Shown: positions 50,566-61,289 of the stretch, one piece after another
Numbering within the stretch: position 1 is the first letter of the stretch
Layout of the letters: each line of letters begins with the position of its first letter
Origin: a virus
IMG/VR virus record: IMGVR_UViG_3300033143_002031
Location: 96,001-160,000 of that record
Reading direction: 5' to 3' (one strand)
DNA length: 64,000 nucleotides
Program-made: the position numbers and the translations under genes
Notes under the pieces: generated by a model
The model's input: the letters and a program-made list of their open reading frames with translations, nothing else
What the model was told of the DNA's origin: nothing
Databases searched by the model: none

Positions 50566-53500
50566 ATGATCGAGTACGAGAATGGCCACTGGCGGTCAGT
50601 GCGGACGCCGCAGGAGGGGACCGGGCTCCTGGAGAGAGACCTGGAGACCCTCACCTCCGAGGAGCGCGAGACGATCGGGGTTCTCATGGCCGAGCTAGCG
50701 GACCCCGCCGCGTCTGCCGGGCTCCTCCAGACCATCGGCAACCTGGAGTGGCTACGCACCCCGGTGGACATGCAAACTTTCTGCATGGACCCGTACTACC
50801 TCGGGAACACCTGCGACAACCTGTACCCGAGGCTCCTGGAGGACATCACCGCGCTGTTCGAGGAGGGCTATCGGGAGGCGGTCCTCACGGGCGCGATCGG
50901 GTGGGGGAAGACCTTCGCTGCGTCCATCGGCATCTGCCGGCTTCTGTACATCCTGAGTTGCATGCGGGACCCCCACCGTTCTTTCGGAATCGCAGCCAAC
51001 TCGAACATCTCGATCGTCTGCCTCTCGGTCAACGAGATCCTGGCCACCAAGGTCGCCTACGAGAACATCGCTACCAAGATCGAGGCGAGCCCCTACTTTC
51101 AGGAAAACTTCCCGTTCGAGAAGACAAAGAAGGAACTTCGCTTCCCACGCAAGGTGTGGGTGGCCGCGCGTGCGAGCAACGACGGCTCGGTCTTGGGGCT
51201 AAATGTTATTGGAGGCTTGCTGGATGAATGTGTGCCAGTCGGGTCGCTGGTGCTGCTCGGGGATGGTAAACAGGCTCGTGTGGAGACGTTGGTCGGTCGG
51301 ACCGATGTGGTGGTCGAGACGTTCGACTTCGAGCTAGGTCACGCTGTGCCAGCACAGGCGTTCGTGAAATGGTCGTCGGAGCAGCCGTGTTACGAGTTGG
51401 AGTTGGATAACGGTGGAGTGATGCGCGGGTCGGCCGATCACCCTGTTGCAGTTCGACAGGTTGACGGCACCTTCACTTTCAACGTAATGGGCGCTATCCT
51501 GGACGGGCAGGAGGTTGTGGTTCATGCCCCGATGGACGGAGGAGCGCCGGAAAGCTCATTCGGAGCGGATGAAGGCTCTGTGGGCGGAGGGACGATACAA
51601 GGACCGGGAGATGTCACCCGAGGGTCGCGAGAGGCAGGTTTCGGCGGTGCGGCAGATGCACGCGGAGGGACGGGGCTTTGTTCCGCCTCCGATGGAGGGG
51701 ACCGACAACCCGATGTATGGGAAGCGGCTCTCCGACTCGCAGAAAGAGCGCATAGGCGAAGTGAGCAGAGGCAGGCGGTGGTCGGACGAGGACCGCAAGC
51801 GCATGTCCGAGCAGCGGACCGGGAAGCCGGTCCACTCACAAGAGTTCAAGGACGCGCTGGCCGAACGCAACCGGGAGCGCAAGGGCAAGTTCAAGCACAC
51901 CGAGGAGACCAAACAGAAGATCTCCGAATCGAACATCTGGAAACTCCGCAAGGGGGACTTCCGCTACTTGGGTTGGGCGCAGACGACCAAGGCAGGGCGT
52001 GTCGGTTTCCGCAGTCTGTACGAATTGAGAGCCATCGAGTTGTTGGAGGCGGACTCCTCTGTGACGCGGTTCGAGTACGAGAAGCTGGCGGTCTCCTACT
52101 CGTTGAACGGGACGACCCGCCGCACGGTGCCGGACTTTCGAGTCTGGGGCGACAGGGATCGTGTGATCGAGGTCAAGCCCCGGGGCTTCACCTACCATTG
52201 GAAGGAGAAGCTCAAGATGGGTGCCGCGCGGCGCTACTGCGAGGAGCACGGCTTGGAGTACGTAGTCTGGGACGAGAGCTTTCTGTGGCCCGCGTCGTGT
52301 CCAAGAGAGACGTGGGAGTGCAGCCTACCTACGACGTTTCGGTCCCAGGGTACGAGTGCTTCGTCGTAGACGGGGTTCTCGTCCACAACACCAACTTCAT
52401 GCCCAAGGCGAGCAAGGGGCAGGACCCGAGGTTCAACCTTCAGGACCGGGCCGAGGTGCTGTACAACGCCATGCAGCGCCGGATGAAGTCCAGGTTCGAG
52501 CGCAAGGGACGGCTGCCCGGCATTCTGTTCGTCGTCTCCTCGAAGCAGACCAACGATGACTTCACGGCCAAGCGGGTCAAAGAGTCGATTCTCGACCCGA
52601 CAGTGTTCGTGCGGGATTACGCTCTTTGGGACGTCAAGCCGGACATCTACTACTCTGACGACTGGTTCCATGTGGTGGTGGGGAACGAGCAAGCTCCCAG
52701 TCGAATCATCGAGGTCGATGAAGACCTCGATGAGGTGAGGGTGCTGCTCCCCGAGGACTGCGTTGTGATCGAAGTTCCGGAGGACTTCCGAGTAGACTTC
52801 GAGAAAGACTTGGAAGGGGCCATCCGGGACCTTGCGGGCGTGGCCACCGTCTCCGTGAGCCCCTACATCCAACGCCGTACCAAGATCGTTGAAGCCATCC
52901 GTCCGGGCATGAAGCACCCTTTCAGCGTGGAGGTGTACGACCCCTCGCAGCCGGGGAGGTTCTACTGGCACAAGATGCTGCGGGCTGCTTCGGACGCCGA
53001 GGGCGGCAACAGGCCCATCCTGAGCCCCTACGCTCCCCGACACATCCACATCGACCCGTCGATGACAGGCGACTCCACAGGCTTCGCCATGGGGCACATC
53101 TCAGGCTGGCGTGAGGTCGTCCGGAGGGACGACGAGGGGAACAAGTACCCCGAGCGTGCTCCGGAGATCACGTTCGACGTGCTCTTGAAGATCGTCCCGC
53201 CTATCGGAGGGGAGATCGTCCTCGGCGAGATACGAAAACTCGTCTACCAGTTGAGCAAGCACGGGTACATGATCACCTGCGTGTCGATCGACTCGTGGAA
53301 CTCCGCCGACGCGATCCAGAAGTTGAATCAGCGAGGCTTCAACGCGATCCAGTTGTCGATCGACAGGACGATGGGACCCTACGACCTTCTGAAGACGGGC
53401 CTCTACGAGGACCGCATCTACTACTACGAATACGAGCCTCTCCTTCGGGAGCTACGCGAGGTCGAGCACGACCGCATGAAGCACAAGGTGGACCACCCGC

Positions 53501-53742
53501 TGCGTGGCTCGAAGGATATTTCAGACGCAGCGGCCGGGGTCATGTGGACGCTCACTGAAAACTCCTCCGCACTGCCTCTCCCCATCCTCCGCAGCGTTCC
53601 GCAGAACGGGGATGCGTGGATGCAGGAGCACCAGCAAGCGGCGATGGCGAGGAGCTACGGGAGCGAGGACACCTCGGATATGTCGGAGAGTACGGCTTTG
53701 CCTCCGTTTCTGGTAGGCTCTGGAAGCGATTGGGGCGACTGA
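50566..53742 (+). CDS. terL: Terminase large subunit containing an intein
   Basis: Walker A TGAIGWGKT, Walker B GLLDE immediately before the intein, VSS, nuclease HIHID.S...DSTG, KDISDA. Confidence 0.93.
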   Translation: MIEYENGHWRSVRTPQEGTGLLERDLETLTSEERETIGVLMAELADPAASAGLLQTIGNLEWLRTPVDMQTFCMDPYYLGNTCDNLYPRLLEDITALFEEGYREAVLTGAIGWGKTFAASIGICRLLYILSCMRDPHRSFGIAANSNISIVCLSVNEILATKVAYENIATKIEASPYFQENFPFEKTKKELRFPRKVWVAARASNDGSVLGLNVIGGLLDECVPVGSLVLLGDGKQARVETLVGRTDVVVETFDFELGHAVPAQAFVKWSSEQPCYELELDNGGVMRGSADHPVAVRQVDGTFTFNVMGAILDGQEVVVHAPMDGGAPESSFGADEGSVGGGTIQGPGDVTRGSREAGFGGAADARGGTGLCSASDGGDRQPDVWEAALRLAERAHRRSEQRQAVVGRGPQAHVRAADREAGPLTRVQGRAGRTQPGAQGQVQAHRGDQTEDLRIEHLETPQGGLPLLGLGADDQGRACRFPQSVRIESHRVVGGGLLCDAVRVREAGGLLLVERDDPPHGAGLSSLGRQGSCDRGQAPGLHLPLEGEAQDGCRAALLRGARLGVRSLGRELSVARVVSKRDVGVQPTYDVSVPGYECFVVDGVLVHNTNFMPKASKGQDPRFNLQDRAEVLYNAMQRRMKSRFERKGRLPGILFVVSSKQTNDDFTAKRVKESILDPTVFVRDYALWDVKPDIYYSDDWFHVVVGNEQAPSRIIEVDEDLDEVRVLLPEDCVVIEVPEDFRVDFEKDLEGAIRDLAGVATVSVSPYIQRRTKIVEAIRPGMKHPFSVEVYDPSQPGRFYWHKMLRAASDAEGGNRPILSPYAPRHIHIDPSMTGDSTGFAMGHISGWREVVRRDDEGNKYPERAPEITFDVLLKIVPPIGGEIVLGEIRKLVYQLSKHGYMITCVSIDSWNSADAIQKLNQRGFNAIQLSIDRTMGPYDLLKTGLYEDRIYYYEYEPLLRELREVEHDRMKHKVDHPLRGSKDISDAAAGVMWTLTENSSALPLPILRSVPQNGDAWMQEHQQAAMARSYGSEDTSDMSESTALPPFLVGSGSDWGD
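51229..52389 (+). mobile_element. Intein (387 aa) with out-of-frame internal endonuclease gene
   Basis: Starts CVPVGSLV, block B SADHP, ends YDVSV...FVVDGVLVHN followed by Thr; the in-frame middle of about 250 aa has no recognisable domain. Confidence 0.92.
51524..52369 (+). CDS. NUMOD3-repeat / TnsA-like PD-(D/E)XK homing endonuclease in the +1 frame of the intein
   Basis: AGGAGG SD at about 51509-51514 and ATG 51524; NPMYGK..S, HTEETKQKIS; FRS.YE...YE...PDF...IEVKP. Confidence 0.88.
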   Translation: MPRWTEERRKAHSERMKALWAEGRYKDREMSPEGRERQVSAVRQMHAEGRGFVPPPMEGTDNPMYGKRLSDSQKERIGEVSRGRRWSDEDRKRMSEQRTGKPVHSQEFKDALAERNRERKGKFKHTEETKQKISESNIWKLRKGDFRYLGWAQTTKAGRVGFRSLYELRAIELLEADSSVTRFEYEKLAVSYSLNGTTRRTVPDFRVWGDRDRVIEVKPRGFTYHWKEKLKMGAARRYCEEHGLEYVVWDESFLWPASCPRETWECSLPTTFRSQGTSASS

Positions 53743-53781: not shown

Positions 53782-54123
53782 ATGGACAGCGAACTCAGGC
53801 GGCAACTGGAGGAGATCTTCGGAGGCGACATGAACGTCGCACCCGGGGGTACAGGAGCCGTGCTCATTCGCCCATCGAAGTTGTCTTTGGAGGTCGCGCA
53901 GCAAGCCGTCAGGGCTATGCCGATAGACGGGTTGTATCGAGACGTAGGTGCTGTCGCAGCGCGTGTCCTAGCGGATGAACTGGAGAGGCAGTCTCTCCGG
54001 CCGGCGGACTACGCTAACCTCCCCGATCTTCCGAAGGCAGCAGCGAAGCGAATCGTTGGCTACCTTCTCCGGTCGGAGGAGTTTGCTCGGTCGTTCTCCG
54101 AGCACCTGGCCGCGAGGGGATAG
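53782..54123 (+). CDS. Hypothetical protein
   Basis: Between TerL and portal; possibly leaderless (TTTCCA-17-TATTAG-6-ATG). Confidence 0.6.
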   Translation: MDSELRRQLEEIFGGDMNVAPGGTGAVLIRPSKLSLEVAQQAVRAMPIDGLYRDVGAVAARVLADELERQSLRPADYANLPDLPKAAAKRIVGYLLRSEEFARSFSEHLAARG

Positions 54124-55919
54124 TGGGCGCTGTACAGAATGTTGTTGATCGCCTGCGTGGTGCGTTTGTCTCGGATAAGGAACGGGGAGGGCAACTACTC
54201 GCCAAGGGCAGCACCTCTCCAACGTATCCGGACTCTGGGTACGACCTGCTTCAAGCCTACGGCTACGATGCTCTGTCGGACTATCTCCGGTTGGAGCACG
54301 ATCTCCTCAGTCGCTATGTCGACTACGAGGAGATGGACGACTACCCCGAGGTCTCGTCGGCCATCGACATCTACGCGGACGACGCCTCACAGCCGGACAC
54401 GCAACTCCAGCGCACCGTGTGGGTGTCCAGTCCGGACAAGACCCTTCAGGGCGTGCTCGACGATCTGTTCCATAAGCGGCTCCGCCTGGACGAGGAAATC
54501 TGGGAAATCGTGCGCTCCCTGGTGAAGTACGGGAACGACTACGAAGAGTTGCTCGTCAATCAGGATGGCGTGGTCGGCTTGAACTTCCTTCCGGCGCCGA
54601 CTGTGCGCCGGGTGGAAGGCCCTCGTGGGGAACTGTACGGGTTCGTCCAGGACTTCAAAGGCCGGTTCGGCTACTCTCCGCAGGAGTTTCAGAAGATCCT
54701 AACCCAGCGCACGGACGCTATCCGTCAGGTCACGCAGCCGGGCGCCGCTCGACCCCCGGGCAACATGCTACAGCGCGTCTCTGCGCTGGAGCCTTGGGAG
54801 GTGTCGCACTTCCGCTTGCGCGGGAAGCACCGCCGGAGCGTGTACGGCTACTCGGTCCTCGAATCGTCACGGTGGATATGGAAGCGGCTCATGCTGCTCG
54901 AAGATGCCGCGATGATTTATCGACTCCAGCGAGCGCCCGAGCGCTTCGCCTTCTATGTCGACGTCGGCGATCTACCTCCGGCCGAGGCGTTGGCGTTCGT
55001 CAACAAGATCCGGCAGCAGCACAAGAAGAAGCGGTTCGTCAACCCGTCTACCGGCAAACTCGATATGAAATTCGAGCCGCTGTCCCAGGATGACGACTTC
55101 TGGGTTCCGGTGCGTAAGGGTGTGGAGGGTACGCGGATCGAGGTACTCGGCGGCCCGTCCTGGCAGCACATGGACGACGTAGAGTATTTCCAGACGAAGC
55201 TGTTCACCGCAATGAAGGTGCCCAAGGCGTACCTGGCTCAGGACGACAACACGGCAAGAGCGGTCCTCTCTAGCGAGGATGTCCGGTTCGCACGGTCTGT
55301 CTTGCGAGTCCAGCGGGAGGTCCGCAACGGTCTTCGCAAGGTGGCCCGGACGCACCTGGCGGCGCTCAATATCGACCCCTACGCGAGCGACTACACCATC
55401 CACATGACCGTGCCTTCGGCCATCTTCGAGTTGGCTCAGTTGGAGGTACGGAACGCGCGGGCTGACTTGGCTTCGCGTATGCGCGAGCATGTCTCGCTGC
55501 GGTGGGTGTTGGAGAACATCTACCAGCTATCGGACGAGGACATCAAACTCATCATTCAAGAGCGGTCCGAGGATGTGATCCGAGAGGGCAAGGCTCAGGC
55601 CGAGGTCGAGAAGATGAGCGCCATGGCGCAGGCTTCGGTAGAGCAGGCATCGGGTGGAGGTGGAGGTGGTGGCGGTGGCGTGGAGTCGCTCGCAGCCCCT
55701 TCGGGTATGCGGAGGCTCGAACGCAAGATCGCTGCGATACCCCGTCAGTTGCGTGGGGCTATCACCGAGAAGGAGCTTCTAAGAGGGAATCGCGAGGCCG
55801 AGAAGCGGGCCGAGGGAAAGTTGGACAGCATCCTCCGGTCGAACAGTGCGAACAGCCAACGCTTGCGGGAGAGCGTGGCGCTTCTCCGAGAGGTCGTGGC
55901 AGCGGCGCATGGCCGCTGA
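54123..55919 (+). CDS. Portal protein, T4 gp20-like
   Basis: YEEMDDYPEVSSAID, LEDA.MIYRLQRAPER..FYVDVG.LP, DDFW.P.R.G..GT.I..L.G, DVEYFQ.KL..A.KVP, EDVRF. Confidence 0.93.
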   Translation: MGAVQNVVDRLRGAFVSDKERGGQLLAKGSTSPTYPDSGYDLLQAYGYDALSDYLRLEHDLLSRYVDYEEMDDYPEVSSAIDIYADDASQPDTQLQRTVWVSSPDKTLQGVLDDLFHKRLRLDEEIWEIVRSLVKYGNDYEELLVNQDGVVGLNFLPAPTVRRVEGPRGELYGFVQDFKGRFGYSPQEFQKILTQRTDAIRQVTQPGAARPPGNMLQRVSALEPWEVSHFRLRGKHRRSVYGYSVLESSRWIWKRLMLLEDAAMIYRLQRAPERFAFYVDVGDLPPAEALAFVNKIRQQHKKKRFVNPSTGKLDMKFEPLSQDDDFWVPVRKGVEGTRIEVLGGPSWQHMDDVEYFQTKLFTAMKVPKAYLAQDDNTARAVLSSEDVRFARSVLRVQREVRNGLRKVARTHLAALNIDPYASDYTIHMTVPSAIFELAQLEVRNARADLASRMREHVSLRWVLENIYQLSDEDIKLIIQERSEDVIREGKAQAEVEKMSAMAQASVEQASGGGGGGGGGVESLAAPSGMRRLERKIAAIPRQLRGAITEKELLRGNREAEKRAEGKLDSILRSNSANSQRLRESVALLREVVAAAHGR

Positions 55920-55932
55920 GTCTACCTTTCGT

Positions 55933-55962
55933 TTGACAGACGGTTCGAGGAACAGCTAGTGT
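55933..55962 (+). promoter_or_regulatory. Probable promoter (leaderless)
   Basis: TTGACA-18-TAGTGT, then 8 nt to ATG 55971. Confidence 0.5.
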
Positions 55963-55970
55963 CGCCCAAG

Positions 55971-56852
55971 ATGATCGAGAGCCCCAACAAACTCCTACCG
56001 GATGCCGAATTGCGGCGTCTTCGGTCAGGGAGCTACGAGGTAAAGATCGAGGAGGTCGCCCGAGCGGTCCGTGCGGGCCTTGGGGACGTTCCTTTCGAGG
56101 TGGTGGCGACGCAGGAGTACGGGGCTGTGGTGTACTCCGGTGGGAAGTACGTTCGCGTGGAGTTGACCGAGGATGGCCCGACGCTCTCGGACCTCGATGT
56201 CGAGGTATTCGACATGACAAGCATGCACGGTTTCGTGGGGAGGGAGGCCGGCGTTGTTGTCGACCTGTTCCTTCGTGGCGAGATGAAATCCGCTGTGTCC
56301 CGATTGGAGAATCTAGTTCCGAAGACCCGTGTCTCGGGCGGCAAGGTTGCAAAGATCGAGGGCATGATAGCGGCCCCGCGACCGTGGAGGCGGCTCTTCG
56401 AGGCGCGTGAGGACCACATTCTCGGCTTCATCGAGGGCGATGTGGAGGCTCTCGAAGAAGGCCGGTTGCGCCAGAAGTTCGGTAAGTTGTATGATGGGGC
56501 GATCGAAGAGGGCAAACTCAGTGCCTACGAGGATCGCGTGACAGAAGGTCTGAGGATCGTGATTGACAGGCTGGGTCAGATTCGAGACGAGGTAGGGACA
56601 GCGTTGGCAGTAGCGACCACTACCCTTTCCGAGTCCACCGGGCCTATCGCTGATATGTTTGCTCGATTTGCTGACGATCTGTTCGCCGACCTCTGTGCGA
56701 TCCATGAATCAGGCTCCCACGCAATTGAGGCGGTAGACGATATCCGCTCCCGTGGTAGACTCTGCGACACGCTCGTCGGAGGGTTGCACGATCGGGAGGT
56801 CGCTGGCCGCTTCGTCGTGGTGGTGGCCAATAGAATGGTCGAGGCCAGCTAG
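55971..56852 (+). CDS. Hypothetical protein in the head module
   Basis: Between the portal and the acidic core protein; ORF track start is GTG 55959. Confidence 0.7.
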   Translation: MIESPNKLLPDAELRRLRSGSYEVKIEEVARAVRAGLGDVPFEVVATQEYGAVVYSGGKYVRVELTEDGPTLSDLDVEVFDMTSMHGFVGREAGVVVDLFLRGEMKSAVSRLENLVPKTRVSGGKVAKIEGMIAAPRPWRRLFEAREDHILGFIEGDVEALEEGRLRQKFGKLYDGAIEEGKLSAYEDRVTEGLRIVIDRLGQIRDEVGTALAVATTTLSESTGPIADMFARFADDLFADLCAIHESGSHAIEAVDDIRSRGRLCDTLVGGLHDREVAGRFVVVVANRMVEAS

Positions 56853-56862
56853 GAGGAATGGT

Positions 56863-57774
56863 ATGACTTTGCTCAGGCACGCGGTGGTAATCACCTCCCT
56901 GGAGGAGGACTTCCGGCGCATTGGCCTCATCAAGGAAGATCACCCCGGCGAGGGAGAGGACGTCCTTGCGGAGTCCGAGTCCGAGGAGACCGACGAGTCC
57001 GATTACGACGTGGACTTCGACGACGACGAGGACGAGGCAATCTCCAAGGCCCGCCCCGACTCCGACGAGGCCGACGAGGCCGACGAGGCCGACGAGTCCG
57101 ACGAGTCCGACGAGGATGTCGCTATGGCCGAGGCCGTTGCTTTCCACGAGAGTGCGAAGGCGATGTGGCAGGAGTTCGGTGAGGATGGCATCGAGACGAT
57201 CGATCTCGACTCGGGGCAGATGTCCGCTCTGGAGGGCATGGGGGATACCACCACGCTCCCCGGCGGTGTCATCGACGAGACCATCGACGCTGACGACGAG
57301 GACGAGGCCATCGACGAGGACGACGACGAGGATGAGGGCGAAGACGCCCCCAACCCGTTCGAGTCCGTGTCCGAGGCCATGAGCGCCATCGAGGCCATCC
57401 TGGACGAGGACGCGCGGCCGACCGACTCTCTGGAGGAGGCCACCCCAGCGTTCGCCAACCTCGCGCTCATCTCGGAGAAGCTGTACGGTTTCTTCACCGA
57501 GACCGCCGAGGCTCAGGACGATGCCGAGTACGCGGAGATTGCCGAGGCGTACAAGAGCATCGCGCAGTACTCGGCAGCGATCGTGGACACGCTCAAGACC
57601 GAGAGTGCCGACACGATCAACTTCGAGGCCCTCACGGAGACGTTCCAGGACTACCTGGCGACGGTCCTCCAGGGCTTGGAGACCTTCGCCATCCTCCGGG
57701 AGGCCGATGAGGACGAGGACGAGGACGAGGACGACGGTGAGGAGCAGGACGAGGGCGATGAGGGAAACGGGTAA
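56863..57774 (+). CDS. Highly acidic putative prohead core protein (T4 gp67-like position)
   Basis: AGGAGG SD, ATG 56863; D/E-rich tracts; ends in G GGA AAC GGG TAA. Confidence 0.75.
   Translation: MTLLRHAVVITSLEEDFRRIGLIKEDHPGEGEDVLAESESEETDESDYDVDFDDDEDEAISKARPDSDEADEADEADESDESDEDVAMAEAVAFHESAKAMWQEFGEDGIETIDLDSGQMSALEGMGDTTTLPGGVIDETIDADDEDEAIDEDDDEDEGEDAPNPFESVSEAMSAIEAILDEDARPTDSLEEATPAFANLALISEKLYGFFTETAEAQDDAEYAEIAEAYKSIAQYSAAIVDTLKTESADTINFEALTETFQDYLATVLQGLETFAILREADEDEDEDEDDGEEQDEGDEGNG
57062..57115 (+). repeat. Six copies of a 9-nt tandem repeat
   Basis: CCGACGAG(G/T) x6, encoding (A/S)DE units. Confidence 0.9.
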
Positions 57775-57830
57775 GGCGACGACTCCGCGCGCTGGCCCTC
57801 CGTAAGGGGCGTACAACACGGCGTCGTCGC
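57762..57830 (+). promoter_or_regulatory. Candidate programmed -1 frameshift signal
   Basis: Slippery heptamer G GGA AAC (57762-57768) one codon before the stop; 7-nt spacer; 8-bp stem 57776-83/57823-30. Confidence 0.65.
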
Positions 57831-58022
57831 ACAGCGTATTCCTCGGGGAGACGGGAAGTGGTAGGGATGGAGAAGAGTCCAGTGAAGCGTCAGACTCGAA
57901 GCGTAGGAGGATCGCGTTCGGGGCTGGATTTCACTGTCGACCTTCCCAAGACGAGCATACGGTCCGACGCCAGTCTGGACCGTGGGCCGTTCCGGTCCAA
58001 CTTCCGCTGGAAGGTGTCATGA
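57768..58022 (+). CDS. Arg-rich 84-codon -1-frame extension (or a standalone 51-aa ORF from ATG 57867); not in ORF track
   Basis: RVRRRLRALALRKGRTTRRRRTAYSSGRREVVGMEKSPVKRQ...FRWKVS; the stop overlaps the protease start (ATGA). Confidence 0.6.
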   Translation, partial: RVRRRLRALALRKGRTTRRRRTAYSSGRREVVGMEKSPVKRQTRSVGGSRSGLDFTVDLPKTSIRSDASLDRGPFRSNFRWKVS

Positions 58023-59722
58023 TGGGACAATTGACTGCGACTTCCCCATCCACCGAGAACCAGTTGATCGACGAGCAGGTTCACCCCTGCAAGCTCGAAC
58101 TGGTCGAGGGGGAAGGCGAGAAGAAGGGCCGCGTGTTTGCACGTGGGGAGTTCGGCCATGCGGTCAACCCCACAGCGAACGGACGCCGATACCGGCACAA
58201 CATCTGGGAGAACAATTTCTCTCGCCTCCAGTCGAACCTGGAGTCCAAAAAGGTGCTGGGCGAACTCGACCACCCCACGGATGGGCGCACGGCACTGCAA
58301 CGCGCTTCGCACGTTATCACCGGCCTCCGCTTGGAGGACGACAAGGTGATGGGTGAGGCCGAGATCCTCGACACGGCCAAGGGCCGAGACCTGAAGGCGA
58401 TCCTCGCGGCGGGTGTTCCGGTGGGCATCAGTTCCCGTGGTTTCGGGAGCACCAAGCCGGGCAAGGACGGCATCGAGGAAGTCCAGGAGGACTACAAACT
58501 CGTCACCTTCGATTTCGTGGCTGAACCAGCCGACCCGTCGGCCTATCCCGAGGTGGTCTTCGAGAGCGCCGAAGAGGGCGCGGCCATGATGTTCGAGGGT
58601 GTGGCCTTCGAGACGGCCGAGCCGGAAGGTGCTTCTGAGGGTGAGGACGAGGGCGATGACGAAAACGTCGCTCCTGTCGTAGGTTCAGCACCTCCGGGCG
58701 AGGCAGAGATGGCCAAGCGCTTCGGAGAGAAGGTGGCTGCCGAGGCTGCCGCTGCGCCGAAGTCCGCCGAGGCAGAGATGGCCGCGCGGTTCGCCGCGAA
58801 GGTTCTGTCCGACGCCGAGGGAAACGATGTCTCGGTCGAAGACCTCCGGCAGGAGTTTGCGGACCAGATCGTAGATCGTATCGCTGCCCTCCGGGGTGAC
58901 GTCGAGAAGCAGGTTCGCGCTGAGATGGCAGCGGACCCCGCAGTTGCAGGTGCGAGAGCGGCCTTGGAAGACGTGCAGCGGGCGTTGCTCCCGTTCGCCC
59001 TGACCGAGGATGCCCACGCGCTGGTCGCAGAGCGCGACGATGAGATACACGCGCTCCGGTCCAAGCTCGAAGAGGTGGAGCAGACGATCGAGCAGCACGA
59101 GACGCTGATCGAAACGCTCACCGAGGCGGCTCGGGAGGCAGGCTACAGGTACCACCTGGAGTGCTTGCTCCATGAGGATGACGCAGAGATCGAGCGGCTT
59201 CGCGTGATCGTTGGGGATGTCTCGCAGTACGACTCCCCGGATGCGCTTCGCACTCGTGTCGAAGAGGCGTATCAGGAGATGCAGACGTTCCGTATCGAAG
59301 AGGAGCGTGTGCAGCAACAACGGTCGGAGGAATCTGATCGTCTACGCGGCAAGAACCAGGCATTGGCGGAGGGGCTGGAGAAAGCCCTCGTCGCCAACCG
59401 GGACCTGGCTCTACAGGTCTACGCATCCAAGAGGTTGCAAACTCACCCTCAAGGTGCGAAGATCCTCCGCATGCTCGAACGATCAGGGCTTCAGTCCCAG
59501 GAGCAAGTGGATGCACTGATCGAGGACTTCCGTGAGCCGAAGCGCGACGCGGACGACCTCGAAGCAGTGCGTGCTCGCGTTCGTGCTCAACTGCATGGTG
59601 GGGCGGAGTATCTCGAAGAAGACACGCAACCCTCTGGGCCGCGTGGTAGTGGATCGAAGGACTACAATGGTCTCGGAGCGTCCCTGGCTGACTTGAAACA
59701 CCTGGCAGGACTGCGAGACTGA
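58019..59722 (+). CDS. Prohead protease (T4 gp21-like) fused to a scaffold-like coiled coil
   Basis: N.NGR.Y, LGELDHP, ASH.I, GEAEILDT..G, VGISSRG.GS, FDFVAEP; acidic coiled-coil C-terminal half. Confidence 0.9.
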   Translation: MMGQLTATSPSTENQLIDEQVHPCKLELVEGEGEKKGRVFARGEFGHAVNPTANGRRYRHNIWENNFSRLQSNLESKKVLGELDHPTDGRTALQRASHVITGLRLEDDKVMGEAEILDTAKGRDLKAILAAGVPVGISSRGFGSTKPGKDGIEEVQEDYKLVTFDFVAEPADPSAYPEVVFESAEEGAAMMFEGVAFETAEPEGASEGEDEGDDENVAPVVGSAPPGEAEMAKRFGEKVAAEAAAAPKSAEAEMAARFAAKVLSDAEGNDVSVEDLRQEFADQIVDRIAALRGDVEKQVRAEMAADPAVAGARAALEDVQRALLPFALTEDAHALVAERDDEIHALRSKLEEVEQTIEQHETLIETLTEAAREAGYRYHLECLLHEDDAEIERLRVIVGDVSQYDSPDALRTRVEEAYQEMQTFRIEEERVQQQRSEESDRLRGKNQALAEGLEKALVANRDLALQVYASKRLQTHPQGAKILRMLERSGLQSQEQVDALIEDFREPKRDADDLEAVRARVRAQLHGGAEYLEEDTQPSGPRGSGSKDYNGLGASLADLKHLAGLRD

Positions 59723-59780: not shown

Positions 59781-61289
59781 GTGGAAGCTCGACAGATGCT
59801 TCAGGAAGAGGGTCGTCGAACGATCGCCGACCAGAGCTACGTCGGGGCCTTGATCCGGAAGTGGGGAGACTTCCTGGAGGGCCTCGCCGATCGATCCGAG
59901 CAGGACAGGTACATCCTCGGATGCACCGCCATGCTCATGGAGAACGAGAGCCTCTGGCTCCAGTCTCTCACGGAGGAGACGCGCACGGTGAACGTCGGTT
60001 CGTTCACCAAGTTCATCTTCCCCGTTTTGAGGCGAGTTTTCCCGAACCTCATCGCCAACGAGATCGTCTCGGTCCAGCCGATGACGGCCCCGATCGGTGC
60101 TGTCTTCTTCCTCGACTACGTGTACGGTTCGACCAAGGGCGGCACGACCGAGGGGAACGTGTTCCCACGTGACTTCGATCGTGACTACTCCAGCGAGTAC
60201 GTCAACGGCGAGTCGATGGTGACCGGCGATGGCGTCAACTTCGGTGGTGGTGGTGGTGCGCTCGACCTCACCGGGACCCTCGCGTGGACCCCGGTTCGGC
60301 CCCTCGATGCTGCTCGTGAGTTCTCGTGCGCCATCCGGGAGGTTTCGGCGGCGGACGGGTCGACCGTGCAGGAGGCCGTCGACGATGGGGCGGGCGGCTT
60401 CACGTTCACCCCGGCCGGTGGACTCACTTCAGGCTCGATCAACTACGCGAACGGCGCGGTGACTGGGTTCCAGTTCCAGAACATCCCCGCCCTCGGGAAC
60501 CAGGTCAAGGCGTACTACTACTTCGACGGGGAACTCAACACCAAGGTTCCCGAGATCAAGCTCGACATCAAGAAGGCGCCGGTCGAGGCCAAGCCGCGTC
60601 GACTCAAGGCCCTGTGGTCGAGCGAGGCGGCGGAAGACCTCCGTGCGTTCCACGGTCTCGACGCCGAGACCGAGATCGTGTCGATCATCGCTCAGGAGAT
60701 CGCGCTGGAGATCGACCGCGAGATCATCAACGACCTCTTCCTGGCTTCGACGGGGACCACCGGCACGTTCGACCGCATCCCGCCCGGTGGCATCTCGGAG
60801 ATCGACCACATCCGAGCGCTGATCACGCAGATCAGCACCGTCTCGAACCTCATCCACAAGAAAACCCTCCGCGCCCCGGCGAACTGGATCATCACGAGCC
60901 CCGAAATCTCGGCGCTCCTGACCCAGTTGACCACGCACGGCGACTTCAAGCCGATCTGGTCGTCGGACATGAACCCGAACTCGCCGACCGACGTACCTCG
61001 GCCGCGCACGGCGCATGGGCAGTTCTCGATCTACAAGACCGGGACGCTCATGAACAAGTGGGTCGTCTACGAAGATCCCTTCTTCACGACCAACAAGATG
61101 ATGGTCGGTCTGAAGGGCGGCAGCTTCCTGGAGTCCGGCTACTGCTGGGCGCCCTACGTGCCCCTCCAGGTCACGCCGACCTTCCTCGATCCGAGCGACT
61201 TCAGCTTCCGCAAGGGCCTCCGGACCCGCTACGCGAAGAAGCTGCTTCGCCCGGACTTCTACGGCCAGTTGACGATCAACAACCTGTAG
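59781..61289 (+). CDS. Major capsid protein, T4 gp23-like
   Basis: RRVFPNLIANEIVSVQPMTAP.G..F, RLKA.WS.EAAEDL.AFHGLDAE.E, EIDREII, APYVPL, G..TRY. Confidence 0.96.
   Translation: MEARQMLQEEGRRTIADQSYVGALIRKWGDFLEGLADRSEQDRYILGCTAMLMENESLWLQSLTEETRTVNVGSFTKFIFPVLRRVFPNLIANEIVSVQPMTAPIGAVFFLDYVYGSTKGGTTEGNVFPRDFDRDYSSEYVNGESMVTGDGVNFGGGGGALDLTGTLAWTPVRPLDAAREFSCAIREVSAADGSTVQEAVDDGAGGFTFTPAGGLTSGSINYANGAVTGFQFQNIPALGNQVKAYYYFDGELNTKVPEIKLDIKKAPVEAKPRRLKALWSSEAAEDLRAFHGLDAETEIVSIIAQEIALEIDREIINDLFLASTGTTGTFDRIPPGGISEIDHIRALITQISTVSNLIHKKTLRAPANWIITSPEISALLTQLTTHGDFKPIWSSDMNPNSPTDVPRPRTAHGQFSIYKTGTLMNKWVVYEDPFFTTNKMMVGLKGGSFLESGYCWAPYVPLQVTPTFLDPSDFSFRKGLRTRYAKKLLRPDFYGQLTINNL

Follow-up and report, generated by a model that had tools for sequence, protein, structure and literature searches.

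A probable programmed -1 ribosomal frameshift in the T4-type head module of an uncultivated phage lineage

The gene for an acidic head-core protein in an uncultivated T4-related phage ends in the heptamer G GGA AAC, at which a programmed -1 ribosomal frameshift very probably leads into an overlapping open frame that encodes a basic tail. The locus lies in the window, i.e., the whole stretch of 64,000 nucleotides that was analysed, which covers positions 96,001 to 160,000 of the 184.7-kb IMG/VR virus record IMGVR_UViG_3300033143_002031. The frameshift reading is drawn from the conserved relation between the two frames among relatives, nine interchangeable heptamers, a coding signature that lies 5' of the ATG of the extension, and a conserved stem-loop.

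The head module falls within the window (Table 1), where the Portal_T4, Peptidase_S77 and Gp23 families follow one another in the order 20-21-23 and mark it as a T4-type module of a distant Straboviridae-like phage. In every relative, a homologue of the acidic gene occupies the place between portal and protease. The closest cultured phages show 34-43% identity, confined to the protease domain, and searches of 50,697 phage records with the head module (blastn) and with the tail (tblastn) gave no match, the tail being found in no cultured phage. A look-up of sequencing runs returned no RNA run; the two runs that it gave were of DNA from sediment and had small word shares. A tail-chaperone frameshift was also sought in the same genome as an internal control for how the host responds to the heptamer, and the candidate pair was rejected as an HNH endonuclease and a baseplate hub.

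Table 1. Coordinates of the head module and of the candidate recoding site, numbered within the window
Feature	Position	Strand	Remarks
Large terminase	50566-53742		
Portal	54123-55919		Portal_T4, PF07230, 3e-72
297-aa ORF, no assignment	55959-56852		
Acidic head-core protein gene, 0-frame, 303 aa	56863..57774	+	AGGAGG Shine-Dalgarno 5' of ATG
TGA closing the -1 frame	57759..57761	+	immediately 5' of slip site
Slippery heptamer G GGA AAC	57762..57768	+	X XXY YYZ register
0-frame stop TAA	57772..57774	+	one codon past heptamer
-1-frame extension	57768..58022	+	84 sense codons (CGG 57768 to TCA 58019) and TGA; basic, predicted disordered
Two-tier stem-loop, 7 nt past heptamer	57776..57830	+	outer helix 57776-57783/57823-57830, inner hairpin 57795-57799/57806-57810
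Most conserved extension block (RRRRTAYSSGRREVVG)	57819..57866	+	5' of the extension's only ATG
Apparent gap, 92 nt	after acidic ORF, before ATG 57867		
In-frame ATG	57867..57869	+	start of 51-aa ORF; not conserved as start codon
51-aa ORF that a gene caller might pick	from ATG 57867		
Prohead protease (Peptidase_S77) with scaffold-like C-terminal part	58019..59722	+	PF03420, 2e-18
Gp23-type capsid gene	59781-61289		PF07068, 8e-73

The acidic protein is rich in Asp and Glu and consists of a conserved helical domain, a variable Asp/Glu tail and a terminal E-G-N-G directly before the stop; the Asp/Glu tail differs in length and sequence among relatives, and the terminal E-G-N is fixed. The first-pass annotation of this DNA had described an acidic ORF ending G GGA AAC GGG TAA, with a heptamer one codon before the stop and a -1 frame that is shut by TGA 57759 and then open for 84 codons up to an ATGA overlap with the protease. 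The sequence bears out each of these points: the ORF ends in GAG GGA AAC GGG TAA, reading in the -1 frame is uninterrupted from 57762 up to TGA 58020-58022, and this stop overlaps the protease start (ATG 58019) as ATGA. As a consequence of the upstream TGA, the -1 frame can be entered only within the final 4 codons of the acidic ORF. An open -1 frame alone is weak evidence, since it is expected in about 40% of cases for 30 codons at the local G+C. GGA is the rarest Gly codon in the head genes of the window (9.7%), yet it is fixed at the slip site. Over the whole window GGGAAAC is not over-represented (4 found versus 9.4 expected). E. coli ribosomes slip less readily on X XXA AAC than on X XXA AAG, which may not be the behaviour of the host of this phage.

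Arginine and lysine account for 14 of the first 33 residues past the slip, as had been counted before. Three linear motifs are conserved in the tail, RRTAYSSGRxExIG, KRKTRxVG and TPFRSNFRW, and the invariant residues of its best conserved block are R20, R22, R23, Y26, S28, G29, R30, E32 and G35. An AlphaFold2 model from a 24-row alignment has a mean pLDDT of 55.6 and contains no secondary structure, and the tail is accordingly predicted to be disordered; the grouping of its invariant positions into three short motifs would suit docking onto partners. The WRxRR block is immediately preceded in many lineages by a T4-type [LV]-x-E site. Comparison by eye of the C-terminus of the tail with the N-terminal arm of the capsid protein revealed no resemblance, a word-index protein search with the 86-aa -1 product returned no match, and neither the acidic ORF, the short ORF nor any of the 24 tails was assigned to a family of Pfam or PHROGs. 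The first-pass remark that the ORF track misses this frame extends to the relatives, in which gene callers likewise leave a stretch of ~200 nt uncalled.

Relatives were collected in two sets. Protease-based searches of IMG/VR and of JGI metagenomes, plus two look-ups of distant protease homologues, gave a first set of 26 distinct loci whose protease identity lies between 84% and 40%. The first 15 IMG/VR relatives among them (protease identity 78% to 44%) each possess an in-register canonical heptamer. In 26/26 of the loci of this set the basic ORF is shifted by -1 relative to the acidic ORF and spans the acidic stop without interruption, and all but one carry a canonical in-register heptamer, mostly G GGA AAC one codon 5' of the stop and otherwise G GGA AAA, A AAA AAC, A AAA AAG, G GGA AAG or C CCA AAA. 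Translations of the -1 frame can be aligned from the slip site on, best in the block RRTAYSSGRxExIG. The second set came from an IMG/VR scan with a profile of the tail, which is independent of gene calls and returned 68 loci; pooling and de-duplication left 63 distinct metagenomic loci with the tail motif. The full layout (class A), defined as a long 0-frame ORF that ends inside an open -1 frame and contains an in-register X XXY YYZ in which Y is A or T, is present in 49 of the 63.

Nine different heptamers occur among these 49 loci: GGGAAAC in 33, GGGAAAA in 6, AAAAAAG in 3, CCCTTTC in 2, and CCCTTTG, AAAAAAC, GGGAAAG, CCCAAAA and AAAAAAA in one each, so that eight canonical heptamers stand in for GGGAAAC in the rest of class A. 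The heptamer is situated 0-1 codon 5' of the stop in 39 of the 49. Outside this position, the same ORFs contain in-register heptamers at a rate of 0.00106 per codon, from which 0.12 are expected 0-1 codon before the stop, versus 37 observed (58 loci), i.e., the slip position exceeds the background rate by ~300 times; owing to the relatedness of the loci, these counts do not stand for independent events, but the nine different heptamers do. The -1 relation is retained over stop-to-motif distances of 9 to 25 codons, and the comparative pattern as a whole is far beyond chance. Conservation of the heptamer, the stem and the -1 ORF in related genomes had been suggested as a check on the recoding, and all three are kept, the heptamer and layout in the 49 loci of class A. 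The first-pass annotation had set against recoding a pattern in which relatives retain the ORF from ATG 57867 and lose the heptamer or the Arg-rich stretch 57768-57866; the reverse was found, heptamer and Arg-rich stretch being conserved and ATG 57867 not.

The minimum-energy fold of 57769-57835 leaves a 7-nt spacer and forms an 8-bp helix that encloses a hairpin, with -29.6 kcal/mol, and thus reproduces the stem with an inner hairpin that had been pointed out 7 nt after the heptamer. Most relatives fold alike, with a two-tier stem-loop of ~55 nt from 7 nt past the heptamer as the minimum-energy structure; the first helix begins at exactly this distance in 22 of the 49 loci and at 5-9 nt in 33. 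The window segment ranks among the most stable 1.6% of equal-length windows of its own locus, and across the 49 loci the median rank is 1.7%, with 32 at or below 5%. The arms differ between lineages and the pairing is kept (GCGACGAC/GTCGTCGC, CCGGCG/CGTCGG, GTCGGT/ACCGAC, CCGCCTGA/TCAGGCGG); pairing in the outer helix reaches 88% on a plain alignment, with compensatory changes, and the covariation score is higher than that of all 500 shuffles and all slid controls. RNAalifold on the plain MAFFT alignment recovered only five outer-helix pairs. Such a fixed-column consensus understates the structure, because CGN repeats allow the arms to slide by one codon between lineages, the arms being composed of the tail's own Arg codons. 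The window hairpin taken alone is modestly more stable than dinucleotide shuffles (z = -1.65), and on synonymous-codon resampling (z = -0.07) it is not exceptional for its Arg/Pro/Gly-rich peptide; resampling across the loci with usable codon tables, from which eight with tables that were too small dropped out, gave a mean z of about -1.5. The few C CCT TTN candidates and the locus L071 possess no stable downstream fold. A search of 57600-58100 against Rfam found no family. No promoter-like or terminator-like site was detected in 56700-58200, and the hairpin therefore does not qualify as an intrinsic terminator.

Two ordinary genes would place the start of a 51-54-aa basic protein at ATG 57867 or GTG 57858 and turn the part upstream into an untranslated regulatory RNA or ribosome-binding region, an arrangement that we regard as highly improbable. 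In its favour, an ATG occupies the equivalent position in the window, L005, L006, L008 and L023 and a GTG does so in several others, L005 has GGGAGGAG 8 nt 5' of the ATG, and gene callers accept neither reading. However, the equivalent codon is ATG, GTG or TTG in only 16 of the 63 loci; it is not a start in the other 47, other codons there being TTC, GCT, TAC, GTT, GCC, TTT, GTC, CAC, TCG, GCG and TGG, i.e., Phe, Ala, Tyr, Val, His, Ser or Trp. Moreover, the strongest protein conservation lies 5' of the ATG. From the slip site to ATG 57867, pN/pS is 0.47 in the -1 frame versus 1.47-1.48 in the other two, and downstream of the ATG it is 0.51 versus 1.15-1.20, figures from a codon alignment guided by the -1-frame protein that favours this frame somewhat. 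Third codon positions of the -1 frame are the most variable, and when the window is compared with L005 over the RRRRTAYSSGRRE block, 5/5 nucleotide differences fall at third positions and are synonymous. Judged by these substitutions, the segment 5' of ATG 57867 evolves as coding sequence in the -1 frame only. An untranslated element, furthermore, would not keep a -1 relation over spacers of 9-25 codons, and the G-rich run that resembles a Shine-Dalgarno sequence consists of the codons of a conserved G-R-R-E. With ATG 57867 and GTG 57858 in frame and G-rich sequence 5' of them, the window may give rise to an extra short product.

Non-canonical initiation or termination-reinitiation, for instance at CTG 57792, would generate a separate protein of ~75 aa and no fusion; it is very unlikely, despite a precedent within the clade. 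In L072, L094, L083 and L093 the basic protein is encoded separately and starts at an ATG: the upstream ORF lies in the frame of the basic ORF, and its stop is followed within a few codons by this ATG, with GAGG upstream; the tail can therefore work unfused. T4 genes 67 and 68, with their one-base overlap, are likewise separate. On the other side, the -1 frame lacks any ATG, GTG or TTG from its upstream stop to the motif in 37 of the 49 loci, and in 16 loci this frame opens no more than 8 codons before the 0-frame stop; on these counts, conventional initiation is shown to be unable to reach the tail in most relatives. Reinitiation needs no heptamer, yet one is present in register far above background and is replaced by other canonical ones, nor does it impose a -1 relation, the lineages with their own start sitting in frame 0. 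The start may be a GTG in L096 and L098, and in six loci the -1 geometry persists although a canonical heptamer is absent, some of them having C CCT TCY or G GGG GAA at the corresponding position. The separate-gene and heptamer-less loci make the frameshift the majority solution in the clade, not the sole one. Transcriptional slippage by RNA polymerase, or an assembly error that hides one continuous ORF, has a practically negligible probability. Runs of 6-7 A at the site in L031, L033 and L056 would suit slippage, but efficient polymerase slippage needs runs of about 8 or more, for which G3A3 is too short. An assembly error is at odds with the two-frame layout of 49 independent assemblies from many samples and with the failure to find an in-frame fusion of the acidic and basic parts among the relatives examined.

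For the programmed frameshift, the following course is proposed. Most ribosomes would terminate at TAA 57772 and release the 303-aa acidic protein. A fraction would pause with tRNA-Gly and tRNA-Asn on GGA AAC, the pause being caused by the stem-loop 7 nt downstream and possibly also by the neighbouring stop codon, and these ribosomes would re-pair on GGG AAA and translate 84 codons of the -1 frame as far as TGA 58020. This would yield the acidic protein with a basic, disordered C-terminal tail. We infer that this trans-frame protein is in fact produced; it would be a minor component of the prohead scaffolding core, its dose set by the slip, and the basic tail presumably contacts DNA or an acidic partner, either the core or the acidic propeptide of the capsid protein. 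A further and rather unlikely reading takes the locus as a dual-use RNA/peptide sequence whose basic tail, cut off by the prohead protease, stays in the head. The CGN runs that encode Arg in the two basic clusters may then supply the stem arms, and Pro/Gly codons the inner hairpin, RNA pairing and peptide composition may co-evolve, and the retained tail may be a DNA-associated basic internal peptide with a dose set by frameshifting.

The first-pass annotation had compared this locus with T4, citing the order portal-gp67-gp68-gp21-gp22-gp23, an acidic gp67 and a basic C-terminal half of gp68. All of this agrees with NC_000866, in which the order is 20-67-68-21-22-23, gp67 (80 aa) finishes with a run of Asp and Glu, and Lys and Arg abound in the C-terminal half of gp68. 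In T4, gp67 and gp68 are components of the scaffolding core that are degraded by the protease gp21 (PMC9958956). The frameshift locus shares with them the place between the portal (gp20) and protease (gp21) genes, an acidic end like that of gp67, and the basic composition of the C-terminal half of gp68. However, T4 makes gp67 and gp68 as distinct proteins, whose genes share a single base, and the acidic protein described here, of 303 aa versus the 80 of gp67, has no detectable sequence relationship to it. The acidic ORF of the window had no match in Pfam at E <= 1, whereas T4 gp67 itself scores 163 bits against PF17634; hhalign gave a probability of 1% for the acidic profile A6 against T4 gp67, and 0.06% and 0.3% for the tail profile A5 and A6, respectively, against T4 gp68. 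The analogy with gp67/gp68 is thus one of position and composition only. Of the earlier proposal that gp67-like and gp67+gp68-like proteins arise from one gene by recoding, the -1 frameshift is supported by the relatives, and homology to gp67 or gp68 was not found.

Several known systems offer likenesses. The mechanism itself is textbook, and -1 slips that lengthen phage structural proteins at the C-terminus have been described before. The major head protein gp5A/5B of Lactobacillus phage A2 is reportedly extended by a -1 frameshift, and in phage T7 gene 10A/10B a -1 frameshift occurs near the 3' end of the head gene. The present locus resembles both in the X XXY YYZ slip proposed near the stop of a head-morphogenesis gene, which would give a long minor and a short major form. 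In A2 and T7, however, it is the capsid shell protein that is extended, whereas here the recoded gene encodes an acidic protein in the internal or scaffold position of a T4-type module, to which a long, basic tail, predicted to be disordered, would be added.

The lambda G/GT frameshift is said to be conserved among tail-assembly chaperones. It shares with the present locus a near-identical heptamer (G GGA AAG in lambda), a layout of overlapping 0 and -1 ORFs that is kept across very divergent phages while the sequences drift, and the presumed purpose of setting the short-to-long ratio. It differs in belonging to the tail module, with unrelated proteins, and lambda G/GT needs no downstream structure, in contrast to the stable stem-loop that is conserved here at a 7-nt spacing. 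With E. coli dnaX (tau/gamma) and the IS3-family transposases the locus shares the bacterial -1 frameshift architecture, in which a heptamer is followed by a stem-loop 5-9 nt downstream, and the 0-frame stop near the site recalls the early -1-frame stop of dnaX. The dnaX signal combines A AAA AAG with an upstream stimulator that resembles a Shine-Dalgarno sequence, and its shift truncates the protein; the shift proposed here would extend it. The frameshifts of A2 gp5A/5B (Garcia et al. 2004, J Bacteriol 186:1714) and of lambda G/GT and the tail-assembly chaperones (Levin et al. 1993; Xu, Hendrix and Duda 2004) are both cited in PMC5221750. Full-text literature searches returned no report of a frameshift in T4-type head-core genes, and the passages of the PRFect frameshift-prediction paper reached by a look-up do not mention scaffold or prohead genes.

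The finding adds a well-supported recoding event to the head module of T4-related phages, in a large branch without a single cultivated member. Over the extension, standard gene callers report nothing, or else a short ORF or a spurious reverse-strand ORF, and correct annotation restores a conserved head protein in dozens of genomes. The nine interchangeable heptamers, together with the separate-gene lineages, constitute a natural series for the evolution of frameshift signals. From the layout, these phages would seem to set the dose of the basic component in the gp68 position by translation and not by a second gene.

The basic protein, which in most relatives is predicted to be fused to the acidic head-core protein by the frameshift, is encoded by a separate gene in four of the related metagenomic loci (L072, L094, L083 and L093), where it lies in the same frame as the preceding ORF, 3' of the stop codon of that ORF, and begins at its own ATG. 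These separate proteins carry additional N-terminal residues (MSNELQRLIDEARDVLEAW... or MSLIPLSLLLGEG...). In L014, the head-core protein has a much enlarged acidic tail with long Asp/Glu runs, and A AAA AAC takes the place of G GGA AAC as the slip site. Another G GGA AAC in the X XXY YYZ register is located within the protease/scaffold gene of the window, and the −1 frame there reaches a stop after 26 codons.

Coordinates of the features
Feature	Sequence	Position
Large terminase ORF (1058 aa)	Window	50566-53742
Second G GGA AAC heptamer	Window	58819-58825
Capsid protein (Gp23-type)	Window	59781-61289
Head-core protein with enlarged tail	L014	3703-4770
Intein-containing portal gene	L039	1-1272
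Separate basic gene	L072	1423-1659
Separate basic gene	L083	1492-1692
Separate basic gene	L094	
Separate basic gene	L093	
HNH endonuclease gene	L110	7508-8092 (G000:C1:167508-168092)

The large terminase ORF contains an intein-like insert with C...HN-T boundaries, and its mid-part resembles off-frame text. The portal gene of L039, a relative with a protease identity of 43%, carries an intein (Intein_splicing and Hint matches in the gene table), and its product is 896 aa long versus 598 aa in the window. In the tail module of the window's own genome (L110), an HNH endonuclease gene shares an ATGA overlap with the start of the baseplate-hub gene.

In many of the more distant lineages (L055-L108, −1 frames), [LV]-x-E immediately precedes an A/G-W/P/K-R-x-R-R block, as in LSEAPRKRR, VTEAWRYRR and LIEAWRCRR, forming a putative site that resembles, by its sequence, those cleaved by T4-type prohead proteases; the window's subgroup lacks [LV]-x-E before the block and has GGSW or GRTT instead. 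The capsid protein has an acidic N-terminal propeptide of roughly 65 residues and, with the propeptide included, is 81-90% identical between relatives whose proteases share only 45-78% identity (alignment A7); the constraint on the capsid propeptide is unusually strong.
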